A DNA stretch of 42,050 nt from a virus (Duplodnaviria > Heunggongvirae > Uroviricota > Caudoviricetes), in IMG/VR virus record IMGVR_UViG_2718218402_000004, positions 1 through 42,050 of that record. One strand, given 5' to 3'. The position numbers were made by a program. Positions 37,401-42,050 of this stretch are shown one piece after another. How positions within the stretch are numbered: position 1 is the first letter of the stretch; the number at the start of each line of letters is the position of its first letter.

Positions 37401-40400
37401 TCTGGCTATGCCCTGATGCAGGGGCAGACTTTTGACAAATCTGCATATCTGAAACTGGCTATAGCCTATCCTTCTGGTGTTATTCCGGATATGCGCGGCT
37501 GGACAATCAAGGGCAAACCCGCCAGTGGGCGTGCTGTATTATCACAGGAACAGGACGGCATTAAATCGCACACCCACAGCGCCAGCGCATCCAGTACGGA
37601 TTTGGGGACGAAAACAACCAGTTCGTTTGATTATGGTACTAAGTCCACGAATAACACCGGGGCGCATACACATAGTATTAGCGGGACAGCAAATAGTGCA
37701 GGTGGGCACCAACACCAGAGTTCTGGACCATATGCGCATCCGAGTCTCACTGCACTCTTTCCTAACGGTTCTACCCAGGTTTCAGTCACAAACGTACCAG
37801 TTGTATCTCGGGAATCTGGCTCAGGTACGAGCCGTATATCAGGGAAGACATCATCAGATGGAGCGCATACCCACTCATTGTCTGGTACAGCTGCAAGCGC
37901 AGGTGCTCATGCACATACTGTCGGTATTGGCGCTCACGCACACTCCGTTGCGATAGGTTCACACGGACACACCATCACCGTTAACGCTGCTGGTAACGCG
38001 GAAAACACCGTCAAAAACATTGCATTTAACTATATTGTGAGGCTCGCATAATGGCATTCAGAATGAGTGAACAACCACGGACCATAAAAATTTATAATCT
38101 GCTGGCCGGAACTAATGAATTTATTGGTGAAGGTGATGCATATATTCCGCCTCATACAGGTCTGCCAGCAAACAGTACCGATATTGCACCGCCAGATATT
38201 CCGGCAGGCTTCGTGGCTGTTTTCAACAGTGATGAGGCATCATGGCATCTCGTTGAGGACCATCGGGGGAAGACGGTTTATGACGTGGCATCAGGGGATG
38301 CGTTATTTATTTCTGAACTTGGCCCATTACCGGAAAATGTTACCTGGTTGTCGCCGGAAGGGGAATATCAGAAGTGGAACGGCACAGCCTGGGTGAAAGA
38401 TGAAGAAGCAGAAAAACTGTTTCGGATAAGGGAAGCAGAAGACACAAAAAACAGCCTGATGCAGGTAGCCAGTGAGCATATTTCGCCACTTCAGGATGCG
38501 GTAGATCTGGAGATTGCAACGGAGGAAGAAATATCGTTCCTGGCCTCATGGAAGAGGTATCGTGTGCTGCTCAACCGTGTTGATACTTCCATAGCGCCAG
38601 ATATCGAGTGGCCGGTAATACCTGCGTCATAGTTCGTAAATGTTCGTCTGACAGGATGCTGAAAGGATGAATTAACGGCCAGATACACAAAAACTGGAGT
38701 TAATTTCCAGTTTTTTTTGTTGTCATGTTAGGGTGATATTTGTTAGAAAAGTTTAGATAGGTTTGTTTTGAAGGTTGAAATGTATGTTATCGCCATCTTT
38801 TATAAATTTGGGATGTTCATGGAGTGAAAGTCAAATAATGCAATCTTATCATGGAGGAACGCAAGATCTTATTAGTGTGGTATTAAGTAAAATTTAGTAA
38901 CTTTATCCAGTGTAGTGGATTTGTTGCATGGATGGAGTTGGTAAAAAGTGGTGTGGCTGGCAATCCAGGCCACGTCACAGAAATGGACAATGCCGCTGAG
39001 AGACTGGCGAATGGCATACAGGCACCAGAAAAATTTCAGATATGACATAATGCCCATGCCAGAAGTTCCTTTTGCACCTCGCCTGTATTTATAGATAAAC
39101 ATAGAGTGAATGAATGAGATATGAAAGACATTACCCTTCCCCCCCCGACGTCCGCGTCCTGTCTGACAGGGGCCATATCTGTAAATACTGAAGCTGTATT
39201 ATCTCCCATGCAACACACTTCAGCCTTACATGTAAGAGATTTTGCTTCCCTGTGCTCACAGAACCTCAAAGCTAATGTATTGCTAAATAGTGATGACCAC
39301 GAAGTACCTATACATCAGAAAAATCCTGCTGCAATAATGCAAAATATCGACTCTAACATCAAACAGATGGCAACAGACTGGGGGATGTCGATTGAGGAGG
39401 TTGAGGTTATTATAGGGCGAGAGAAAGGCATTGTGGAACCCTCCTGCGGAGTTACCGCTAATGCTATTATGAAACTATTTCTGGACAAGGATGGCTTCAG
39501 TTACTGCTTTGAAAATGAACAGACACTATCGCTCGAGCAGCTTCAGGAGCGCCTGTCCTGTATGCCTGAATGTAAGAGCTTTGTATTACGTGTTAATGAT
39601 GGTGCGCTTGGTCATGCTTACATTGTCGATATTCCCAAAGGAGAAAACTCTTGTCGTCCTGCATTCTTGTATCAGTCAGATTTAGGAGAGGGCGTCACCA
39701 GAAAGTTAAGATTTGAGGACTGGATGACGCATAAAGCATTGACTCCGATTTTGCTGGATGATATTTGTAATTACTTCTCCTGCATGTCTCAAAATAAGAC
39801 AGATTTGGAGCAGATTGCAACGTTATTTGATATTGATGGAAATGTTAAAATGTTACGAAAGGAAAATATTCAATATCAAAAGCATGACAATTTTAGTTTC
39901 CAGTTGTTTGAGTATGACACCGATAATATTGAAAAAAACATTGAGATAATAAAATCACTATGTAGTTAGCTTTTGTTAAAACTGCAATTATTTGTAAACA
40001 TAATAATAAGTATTATGACGTTAAAATTTAACCATACGGTAAAATGATTCAGGAAAACCGGTTCAGCATAGCCTAGGCTGAACTTTTGAGGATATCAACG
40101 AACGGAATTTTTGAACATTTATGAGTAGATCGTTGTTGAAGGGCTTCAATGAGCATGTCAAGTTCATCAACTGCTGGTCTACGATTACGACGGTTTGATT
40201 TACCAATCAAAGCAAGTTTAAGTAGATATGGACGAGCACTTTTCGCCGGGTTTGATGTGTAATTAATTCCGTATATAGGTTTGGCTGCATCCAGAACACT
40301 GCCAAGATAACTAACATCGTGACTGACTGTTGCTGGACCTGCACCAGCGTTGTTTCTCAGCCTGCAATGTTCAATTACGTCATTTTCTGTCAGTTCAGAT

Positions 40401-42050
40401 AGTTTGATCGCGGAGATGTCACTATCCATAAGCAGTTCTAGCACATATCTTTTAGTACGGTCTGCTTTACCTCCGGCATTTGGTCATTTAAATATTTGTG
40501 TAGTAAGTCACGGACTGTAAGTCCGTCAACAGCATTTGATGATGAAATGCCATATAGATCTAATTCCATCACTTTCTGTGTGCCCCATGTTTTGGCATGA
40601 GCATGAACGCGGCGGCTATCTCACGGGTGATCATCCCTTTGGCATACTGAAAAGTATCGGGTGTTACTGAACCGTGTTGATACATCAACTGCACCGGATA
40701 TTGAGTGGCCGATAATACCGACGTTATAACCTATAAATGCCAATCAGACTGAATGTTGAAAGGATAGAATGAACAGCCCGACACACAAAAAACGGAGTCC
40801 GGCTCCGGTTTTTGTGTTGCCATATAAGGCCGATGTTTGTTACAGCTATTTAAGTCTGGAGTTCAAATTAAAATAGGGAGTTTTGTTATGCCATTAACCT
40901 CAGATATTAATTCATCTTCGTTCAGCCTTGGAATGGAGGTTCTTCGTGCTCAAGTTGCAGCCAATGGGCGCGGAGAAATTAGATTAGGTAATGAAACTGT
41001 CAGTATTGTGTTTGATCAGGCAGATGGTCGCTTTCTGGCCAGCGGTGACAACGGGGGATTACTTACTGACTTATTGCTAGTGGGGTTTAATAGTGGACCT
41101 CAAGCTCTTGGCGAGAGAATGTTAAGTATTCTTTCAGGATCAGATGCAGGTGAAACACAATCGCAAGAGAGTCTTCAGGATAAAATATCTCAATGTAAGT
41201 TTTCTGTTAATCCAGATGACCTTCAGTGCCCGCCTGAGGCTGCTCAATGTCCAATTACACTTGAGCAACCAGAAGAAGGCGTATTGGTCAGAAATTCAGA
41301 GGATTCAGTAGTATGCTGCTTATTTGATGTCCTTGCATTGGAACGTTTAGTTCGTGAAGACTTACCTCATCCATTGACACGAGAGGAAATAACGGAATCA
41401 ATGATTGTAAAAACTGAAGAATGTACTTATGACCATGTCAGGGGAAATTTTGTTATAAAAGATAGTTAAGATGTTTCAAATGAAACAATATTAACTTCCG
41501 ATAATTTATATAAAAACACCACAGGCATTCGGGGCCTGTGGTTGGTAAAACAATATAATACGCGAGTTATTTTCCATGAGCTGGAGAGAAAACAATCAAG
41601 GTAAGTAGTATTATTTCACAAAATACCGGGCACTTTCTGGTGCCGCATCGTTCAGAGCTTCGGTGTATAATGAATGAAATACGTAGTAACCCTGTAAAAT
41701 TTCTGGAAGAGCATTTAATTCTTAATACACAGCGCTATGCCCATCATGATGAGACATCTTTAATTACAGTTAATATTACAACAGAGGATGGCTTGTTAAG
41801 ACTAAAAGAAACGGAATATGATATGGCTGGTAGTGATTATATTCTGTTTACAGCTATGCGTGATACTGATAGTCCGGAGCGCTTTGATGCACCTGCAGTT
41901 GTAAGCTTGAGTAATCAGTGTATAAGCCTCCGGCGAAATGATATTTCTCAAACTATCCAGCAAAGTTCACCGTTATGGCTAACTAATCAGCAAAGCGGCT
42001 GTAGTGTTCTTATTGTTCGCCATGGATTATCAGAATCTGGAGAACAGTAG

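Follow-up and report, generated by a model that had tools for sequence, protein, structure and literature searches.

Organization of the cif cargo region

The window analysed here, a 42,050-nt stretch of viral DNA, carries behind its tail-fibre genes a stack of effector genes and gene remnants in the order tfa, nleH remnant, cif, integrase fragment, tfa remnant and nleG, with the following features:

35211-38051: stf
38051-38632, plus strand: intact tfa (Pfam Caudo_TAP, E = 6.5e-43)
38557-38715, plus strand: 3' end of tfa with terminator hairpin, left copy of a direct repeat (repeat families D1/D2)
38689-38715: terminator-like hairpin after the intact tfa (terminator scan)
38794-38897, plus strand: nleH 3' remnant, last ~34 codons (ending in DLISVVLSKI and the stop codon), from homology to prophages with nleH
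39121-39969, plus strand: intact cif, 282 aa (Pfam CIF, E = 3.6e-19; 100% nucleotide identity to annotated cif)
39970-40084, plus strand: AT-rich 3' flank of cif (GC 0.30), abutting the integrase fragment
40085-40605, minus strand: integrase pseudogene fragment, dusA-type, mEp460-like (blastn, pairwise alignment, PGAP note)
40073-40444, minus strand: 123-aa ORF with GTG start, its last 12 nt lying outside the integrase homology, in the hairpin that follows cif
40438-40572, minus strand: 44-aa ORF upstream of the frameshift, its first start an internal GTG/ATG of int (codons 52-53)
40482-40484, minus strand: frameshift site, CCC to CC, codon 81 (alignment to mEp460 int)
40606-40649, no strand assigned: GC-rich filler of 44 nt (GC 0.57), separating the tfa remnant from the 5'-truncated int
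40650-40729, plus strand: tfa 3' remnant (PGAP 'tail fiber assembly protein, missing N-terminus')
40783-40817, no strand assigned: terminator-like hairpin after the tfa remnant, closing the right repeat copy (inverted repeat I4; scan 40793-40807)
40888-41469, plus strand: nleG, opening the next cassette (Pfam T3SS_NleG, E = 3.9e-44)

The direct repeat (38557-38715 versus 40654-40813, ~75% identity, spacing 2097-2098) brackets the cassette formed by cif and the integrase fragment. Homology to prophages that have nleH upstream of cif begins at 38794-38800, and the translated remnant matches the C-terminus of NleH of O26 11368, its equivalent being labelled 'incomplete; missing N-terminus' by PGAP. 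The 3' flank of cif is conserved together with cif in every locus compared, and contains a hairpin read from the sequence (GGTTCAGC-N9-GCTGAAC, at about 40060-40083) that the terminator scan did not call because its loop is longer than 8 nt. The 44-nt filler matches only other cif modules among the loci fetched. A tfa remnant with an identical left edge (40650) is also present in mEp460 and UPEC 26-1, and in O103:H2 one more tfa remnant separates the cassettes.

Such lambdoid prophage cargo regions are reportedly the 'exchangeable effector loci' of Tobe et al. 2006. The effectors lie downstream of stf and tfa, as in other lambdoid effector cargo, and the corresponding region of SC477 ends with espJ, ~0.5 kb before torT. 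The likeness consists in cif, nleG and the nleH remnant (with espJ in relatives) being stacked after the tail-fibre genes, near the attachment site. Compared with the general description of effector cargo downstream of lambdoid tail-fibre genes (PMC3530523), the present region differs in having a recombinase relic and tfa-end remnants at the cassette seams, which is a detail of the module and not a new kind of locus. The preliminary description had proposed looking for att-like repeats or a tRNA gene: no tRNA gene was found in the window or in the 6 kb past it in SC477, and no att-like repeats were seen, the tfa-end/terminator pair being the only substantial repeat. Neither would be expected at the fragment, because both ends of the integrase gene are gone and a dusA-type att lies upstream of its missing 5' end.

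An internal piece of a phage integrase gene

Our blastn and pairwise alignments showed that the 521 nt of integrase homology in the window (40085-40605, minus strand) correspond to nt 121-642 of the integrase gene of the lambdoid phage mEp460 (YP_007112096, 365 aa), with 96.9% nucleotide identity and 1 gap. Codons 1-40 and the C-terminal 151 (215-365) are absent, and since only codons 41-214 of 365 remain, the fragment is an internal piece. In tblastn it matched ten phage integrases (94% amino acid identity, E = 3e-99), and it matched the PHROG family phrog_1, 'integrase', at E = 2.3e-14. Pfam searches with both ORFs and with the joined translation gave at best Int_N, under the cut-off (E = 0.071), and a search of NCBIfam with the fragment translations gave no match, meaning that the curated-family HMM libraries are too coarse for this N-terminal region. 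The PHROGs and the direct DNA comparison settle the integrase identity, and these together with tblastn place the remaining part within the tyrosine recombinase superfamily by descent. PGAP labels an equivalent locus 'site-specific integrase; frameshifted; incomplete; missing N-terminus and C-terminus'.

The preliminary description of a frameshifted integrase piece on the minus strand, between cif and the tfa remnant and nleG, is therefore borne out by DNA and protein comparison, and the HMM check that it proposed upholds the link to tyrosine recombinases through phrog_1, Int_N giving only the insignificant match above. Its limits, 40073-40569, enclose a real fragment but need correction: the homology reaches 36 nt further 5', and 40073-40084 is ORF read-through into the hairpin downstream of cif, outside the int homology. 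Likewise, the piece does contain the non-catalytic N-terminal part, but with the first 40 codons gone it is not strictly N-terminal.

The reading frame is broken by a single frameshift, a 1-nt loss in a run of C (GACCCAAAT to GACCAAAT) between window positions 40483 and 40484; it is because of this deletion in codon 81 that the fragment contains two ORFs, of 44 and 123 aa. The longer one matches phrog_11968 (118 positions, 'unknown function', E = 2e-80), and is called 'hypothetical protein' in many RefSeq records. A chance resemblance to integrases would agree with the weakness of the lone Pfam match and the empty NCBIfam result, but the identity to a bona fide integrase gene extends over the full 521 nt, and an identical frameshift in more than 15 independent assemblies and one sequenced phage argues against a sequencing or assembly artefact; we regard both explanations as exceedingly improbable.

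The fragment contains no catalytic residue, because homology stops at codon 214 and R222, H306, R309, H332 and Y342 of the intact mEp460 Int all lie beyond it, the first catalytic Arg falling in the MRIGE motif in the alignment to lambda-type Int. The PF00589 envelope covers aa 189-346 of the intact protein (E = 3.5e-20); apart from ~26 residues at the start of this envelope, the fragment consists of the non-catalytic N-terminal part, and Pfam detects no PF00589 match in the fragment itself. The lack of a catalytic domain claimed at first reading is confirmed in that the R-H-R-H/W and Y residues of PF00589 are missing. The resemblance to XerC claimed with it has to be abandoned: the fragment finds its best matches among phage integrases, whereas Xer proteins match the catalytic domain only, which is absent here (for the solved structures of XerA and XerC-like proteins, just aa 212-354 of the intact relative, at E ~1e-5). 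Judged by its sequence, the fragment resembles dusA-type, probably Rci-like, phage integrases and not XerC.

Intact relatives adjoin dusA, the carriers of the fragment do not

Intact relatives of the fragment (96-97% nucleotide identity over codons 41-214) adjoin dusA in both of the loci examined, O157:H7 PV15-279 and UPEC 26-1, where the order is tail fibre (plus strand), tfa remnant, (nleG), dinI (minus), int (minus) and dusA; tail fibre, dinI and int follow one another in the same order in mEp460. Location by the 5' end of dusA defines the dusA-associated integrases (DAI), which are Rci-like, with Rci as their closest characterised relative, and stand phylogenetically apart from lambda-type phage integrases (Farrugia et al. 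2015, PMC4482086), and the annotators of the mEp460 record note a similarity to INT_Rci (cd00796). Like the fragment, mEp460 int and the dusA-adjacent prophage alleles are antisense to the tail-fibre genes and represent its parent gene type. They are, however, full length, with a catalytic domain, and the prophage alleles lie beside dusA, whereas the window copy is truncated and frameshifted, and sits in cargo elsewhere, between cif and nleG. The fragment, without RHRH/Y and away from dusA, is a derivative of the DAI family and not a working member. Because the intact relatives close off the tail-fibre/cargo region at its far end and are antisense to the tail genes, the fragment keeps the native position and orientation of the gene relative to them.

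Prophages with cif and the fragment occur at three chromosomal sites, torS/torT (SC477), mdtA/yegL (EC12) and near ybhB/bioA (O103:H2). SC477 is identical to the window across 40040-40650. In SC477 and EC12, the two carriers whose far ends were fetched, an annotated tyrosine integrase and an excisionase lie at the opposite end of the prophage; the resident integrase of SC477 (357 aa, lambda-type) shares 22% identity with mEp460 Int, confined to the catalytic domain, in a pairwise comparison. The earlier suggestion that the cargo was assembled from more than one integrative element is thus supported, intact relatives being found at dusA and carriers elsewhere, with an unrelated resident integrase. 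These comparisons support derivation of the fragment from an element different from the carrier prophages, a conclusion drawn from near-identical prophages in other genomes because the window has no resident integrase of its own.

It could be argued that the fragment is instead what decay has left of the carrier prophage's own integrase, so that a single element would suffice, since dusA-type phages have their integrase at the tail-fibre/cargo end, which is where the fragment is found. We consider this very unlikely: SC477 and EC12 have their integrase and excisionase at the other end, with the low identity to mEp460 Int just given for SC477, none of the three carrier sites is dusA, and a further full cassette (tfa remnant, nleG, ..., espJ) lies between the fragment and the prophage end.

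Copies of the fragment in other genomes

The truncated fragment is found beside cif in phage cdtI, six E. coli chromosomes and ten viral contigs of IMG/VR. The two truncation points are common to every copy examined, irrespective of carrier prophage, insertion site in the chromosome and neighbour on the right, and the codon-81 deletion is present in all examined copies that keep this stretch (5 chromosomal loci, phage cdtI and 9 of the 10 viral contigs). Ends and deletion are identical in EC12, SC477, O26 11368, O111:H8 9662, phage cdtI and those nine contigs. Because truncations and frameshift are shared, all cif modules examined trace to one recombination event. More broadly, cif occurs in 306 genomes, the fragment at at least 99% identity in 285 records, and 248 carry at least 80% of window 39970-40850. 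Together with ~600 intact genes, E. coli has ~900 alleles of this integrase in all. The exact 28-nt junction of cif flank and int has 10 matches in IMG/VR, all in cif modules, and none among one-genome-per-species representatives.

The fragment as such is already known: RefSeq flags it as a frameshifted, incomplete integrase, and phage cdtI has it listed as two small ORFs. The RefSeq pseudogenes JTC67_RS23890 (E. coli EC12) and ECO26_RS31200 (O26:H11 11368), 'site-specific integrase, frameshifted; incomplete', are the same locus, O26 11368 differing from the window in an IS66 element where nleG begins. In phage cdtI (NC_009514), orf25/orf26 have the same truncations, the same codon-81 deletion and the same place between cif and a tfa remnant, but the copy has diverged by ~4-5% and carries a further indel (codon 188), with cdtABC, not nleG, coming next. 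In O103:H2 20151001 and viral contig L019, the equivalent of window 40344-40728 is missing. The term 'integrase' is absent from the Cif papers PMC2654923 and PMC3202828.

Window-type copies are >99% identical to each other and differ from cdtI-type copies by 4%; of the 21 differences, 14 affect the third base of a codon in the old frame. At six central sites (nt 288-513), the cdtI copy groups with an intact O157 allele and not with the window copy. Simple neutral decay, starting from a single ancestor, does not predict these mosaic differences. In several cif-positive genomes an intact int paralogue is present as well ('places in record' = 2), and we read the mosaic sites as probably due to gene conversion by such co-resident intact paralogues, selection on the ORF being the alternative.

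Proposed origin and spread

We conclude, with a probability of about 90%, that this stretch is a dead integrase relic of a dusA-targeting lambdoid phage, which would have no recombinase function and travel as a passive passenger of the cif module. In the scenario that we propose, the unit of nleH, cif and truncated int would have formed the right arm in a lambdoid phage of the dusA type, in which a deletion joined the 3' flank of cif to codon 214 of int. The other junction may then have come from an illegitimate crossover with a second phage, one carrying nleG...espJ, whose tfa was entered shortly before its final ~27 codons and joined there to int codon 41. The resulting composite would have been flanked by tail-fibre/tfa homology on its left and by tfa-end/terminator/nleG homology on its right, and could have spread among lambdoid prophages through homologous recombination, with further decay in some lineages. 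Among 5,426 complete E. coli genomes, no intermediate with cif within ~950 nt of the 3' part of int was found, so the order of events is a model and not an observation. A collapsed tandem prophage was also considered as a model and dropped, since the int of dusA-type prophages has its 5' end towards dusA and not towards a second prophage.

A different question is whether the relic does anything. The 123-aa ORF, or the whole fragment, might have been co-opted, as a stand-alone core-binding-domain protein that would occupy the core sites of dusA-type prophages and hinder their integrase, or as a homology patch favouring exchange with intact dusA-type int genes of the same genome. The ORF is open in most copies, where it passes as a hypothetical protein with a PHROG of its own; the excess of third-position differences between the two allelic forms, the intact paralogue resident in several cif-positive genomes and the mosaic pattern, which suggests exchange with intact alleles, point in the same direction. 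Yet in phage cdtI the further indel interrupts the ORF once more, O103:H2 has lost the 5' half of it, and the third-position bias continues out of frame downstream of the cdtI indel, which fits imported variation better than selection. Moreover, a scan of the minus strand revealed no promoter-like site upstream of either ORF, the GTG of the 123-aa ORF is preceded by a poor Shine-Dalgarno sequence (AAAAGA), and the near identity of window-type copies leaves no power to show constraint. Co-option is accordingly improbable, and there is only a slight chance that the relic is not inert, either because the 123-aa ORF is expressed and hinders a co-resident dusA-type integrase, or because the 521-nt patch serves as a recombination partner. 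If the latter were true, the patch would promote gene conversion, or rearrangements involving both a cif prophage and a dusA prophage.

Integrase relics are routine in prophage cargo regions, and the fragment is of small importance alone. It may mislead automated callers of prophages and islands that count integrases, and PCR or typing assays for the cif module could use it as a marker. Its use is mainly that of a historical marker of the source of this module: judging from the type of its parent gene, cif may at one time have been carried by a lambdoid phage targeting dusA, and have reached prophages at other sites later.

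An integrase pseudogene beside cif

Two short open reading frames (ORFs) lie on the minus strand between cif and nleG, in different frames, and three-frame translation showed them to be a single reading frame broken by a frameshift. The features of this part of the window are:

38794-38897, plus strand, nleH 3' remnant upstream of cif, ending ...QDLISVVLSKI and a stop
39121-39969, plus strand, cif (Pfam CIF, E=3.6e-19)
40073-40444, minus strand, downstream ORF of the integrase fragment, 123 aa
40438-40572, minus strand, upstream ORF of the integrase fragment, 44 aa
40606-40649, 44-nt filler right of the integrase fragment, GC-rich (0.57)
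40650-40729, tfa remnant, last 27 codons
40783-40817, terminator-like hairpin after the tfa remnant
40888-41469, plus strand, nleG (Pfam T3SS_NleG, E=3.9e-44)

The joined translation is 94% identical to lambdoid phage integrases (tblastn, E=3e-99), with matches in mEp460, phiSTEC1575-Stx2k, Lys8385Vzw, 1720a-02 and others, and in DNA the match to mEp460 int (1098 nt) extends from window position 40605 down to 40085 (nt 121-642, 96.9% identity). Together with a PHROGs match to phrog_1 'integrase' (E=2.3e-14), these comparisons confirm the frameshifted integrase fragment of the preliminary description. In the HMM check proposed there for an integrase N-terminal domain, PHROGs found the integrase family, and the 123-aa ORF even has a PHROG of its own, but Pfam returned only Int_N below cut-off (E=0.071) and NCBIfam nothing. 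Curated HMM libraries thus barely detect the fragment, while direct comparison is unambiguous.

Relative to mEp460 int there is one 1-nt deletion, CCC to CC in codon 81, between positions 40483 and 40484. The fragment covers codons 41-214 of 365, the last 151 codons being missing along with the first 40, and hence the native start. It does come from the non-catalytic side, as first described, but without its own first 40 codons it is not strictly N-terminal. Past the int homology, the 123-aa ORF reads through for a final 12 nt (40073-40084) into a hairpin of the AT-rich sequence 3' of cif. In the intact mEp460 protein PF00589 spans aa 189-346, and conserved motifs, together with alignment to lambda-type Int, place the catalytic residues at R222 (MRIGE), H306 and R309 (YHDLRR), H332 (TGHRS) and Y342 (QVYTEL). 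All lie past the break at codon 214, which excludes a recombinase function for the fragment, and the reported absence of a catalytic domain is borne out.

The parent integrase and its context

About 560 records among complete E. coli genomes hold an intact relative (95-99% identity; annotation, tyrosine-type recombinase), and we inspected the context in two genomes. O157:H7 PV15-279 reads J, lom, tail fibre, three nleG copies, dinI, int, dusA, and UPEC 26-1 reads tail fibre, tfa remnant, dinI, int, dusA; phage mEp460 likewise has tail fibre, tfa remnant, dinI, int. Integrases of the dusA-associated group are defined by adjoining the 5' end of dusA, and their nearest characterised relatives are the Rci recombinases (PMC4482086); the mEp460 record is annotated with INT_Rci similarity. 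In dusA-type phages int comes last in the tail-fibre/cargo region and runs opposite to the tail genes, the same place and orientation as the fragment in the window. The parent of the fragment is a dusA-type integrase. The XerC resemblance named at first is a generic superfamily likeness, since solved Xer structures match only aa 212-354 of the intact protein (E about 1e-5), a part absent from the fragment.

Distribution and linkage to cif

Among 5,426 complete E. coli genomes cif is present in 306; the fragment was found at 99% identity or more in 285 records, and at least 80% of window 39970-40850 in 248 genomes. The cif/int junction is identical at all loci inspected, namely EC12, SC477, O26:H11 11368, O103:H2 20151001, O111:H8 9662, phage cdtI and ten IMG/VR contigs retrieved by the exact 28-nt junction, and the codon-81 deletion occurs in every inspected copy that still holds that part. 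The fragment travels with cif, and all cif modules examined have one origin. Its right-hand neighbour differs by locus (nleG, an IS66 element or cdtABC). Among the loci compared, the 44-nt filler was matched in cif modules only, and its source was not found. Further decay is lineage-specific: the cdtI copy has an additional 1-nt insertion in codon 188, and the stretch matching window 40344-40728 is gone from O103:H2 and IMG/VR contig L019, with 270 nt annotated as integrase remaining in O103:H2. The cif gene itself is frameshifted in O103:H2 20151001 (L007 3994-4826) and encodes 275-276 aa in the O26 and O111 loci versus the full 282 aa in the window. In some lineages decay affects the entire module.

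The prophages that carry the fragment are integrated at torS/torT in SC477 (identical to the window over 40040-40650), at mdtA/yegL in EC12 and near ybhB/bioA in O103:H2. At their other end, the SC477 and EC12 prophages each have genes annotated as integrase and excisionase; the resident SC477 integrase is lambda-type and shares just 22% identity with mEp460 Int, confined to the catalytic domain. The differing sites and the unrelated resident integrase support the earlier proposal that more than one integrative element contributed to the cargo region. The suggested search for a tRNA gene was negative, both across the window and over the next 6 kb in SC477.

The cdtI-type copy is 97.5-97.9% identical to an intact O157 allele versus about 96% to the window-type copy, from which 14 of its 21 differences fall at third codon positions. 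Six central sites (nt 288-513) unite it with the O157 allele, while three flanking sites and the common deletion unite both fragments. Selection on the 123-aa ORF could be invoked for this pattern, but that explanation is weakened: the ORF is broken in the cdtI and O103:H2 copies, the third-position bias persists downstream of the cdtI indel, and no promoter-like site was found on the minus strand. Small as the site counts are, our reading of the pattern is gene conversion, with intact paralogues as donors; several cif-positive genomes also carry such paralogues.

Cassette order and a proposed history

The mapped nleH remnant, integrase fragment and tfa-end/terminator repeat give the cargo order tfa, nleH remnant, cif, integrase fragment, tfa remnant, nleG and onwards. 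The tfa-end/terminator unit (40654-40813) repeats the 3' end of the intact tfa gene (38557-38715) in direct orientation, at 75% identity. The last 27-37 or so tfa codons with the terminator hairpin recur between cargo cassettes in the window and in compared loci L007 (2622-2732), L002 (6391-6450) and L011 (4037-4097), and the left edge of the remnant (window 40650) is identical in the cif-less mEp460 and UPEC 26-1. This unit looks like a favoured seam for module exchange. A full nleH precedes cif in most cif prophages; the window, EC12 and SC477 keep only the last ~34 codons. After nleG, a 136-aa ORF (41640-42050, plus strand; stop codon in the final three bases of the window) has no Pfam match, is 'hypothetical protein' WP_001002868.1 in relatives, and is conserved within the nleG-espJ cassette.

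The segment of tfa-end, nleH, cif and truncated int has the look of a right arm from a lambdoid phage of the dusA type, and we infer a three-step history as the most likely one. A deletion would have joined the cif 3' flank to int codon 214; a single illegitimate crossover would then have brought int codon 41 up against the tfa gene of a second phage, the carrier of nleG...espJ, immediately upstream of its last ~27 codons; and the composite would have spread between lambdoid prophages by homologous recombination, through tail-fibre/tfa on the left and tfa-end/terminator/nleG on the right. Tfa remnants also part other cassettes (nleB2-nleC', tfa remnant, nleH-cif in O103:H2), in support of this history; none of the 5,426 complete genomes has an intermediate in which cif adjoins the 3' half of int, and this, like the unexplained 44-nt filler, counts against over-reading it.

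Head and tail modules

The rest of the window contains two lambdoid head/tail modules arranged head-to-head (1-15908, minus strand; 15912-38632, plus strand); aligned in inverted orientation, they share about 90% identity across 10 kb. Near 15909 a 5'-truncated major-capsid gene (minus) abuts a 5'-truncated nohD/nu1 gene (plus), a junction spanned by none of the 5,426 complete genomes; it may be an inversion/deletion between two prophages or an assembly chimera. A single extra G at ~18382, absent from SC477, shifts the reading frame of the head-tail joining gene W (18228-18434 region), which then continues in frame into the portal gene as one 601-aa ORF (18228-20033). Probably the prophage is defective; a sequencing error is the alternative.

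Relation to previous annotation

RefSeq (PGAP) already labels this very locus 'site-specific integrase; frameshifted; incomplete; missing N-terminus and C-terminus', and phage cdtI lists the fragment as orf25/orf26. Effector genes stacked behind the tail-fibre genes of lambdoid prophages are a textbook arrangement (PMC3530523), and the word 'integrase' is absent from Cif papers PMC2654923 and PMC3202828. The fragment is an ordinary, already annotated pseudogene, to which our analysis makes only a small addition: its dusA-type parent integrase, and the single origin of all cif modules examined.
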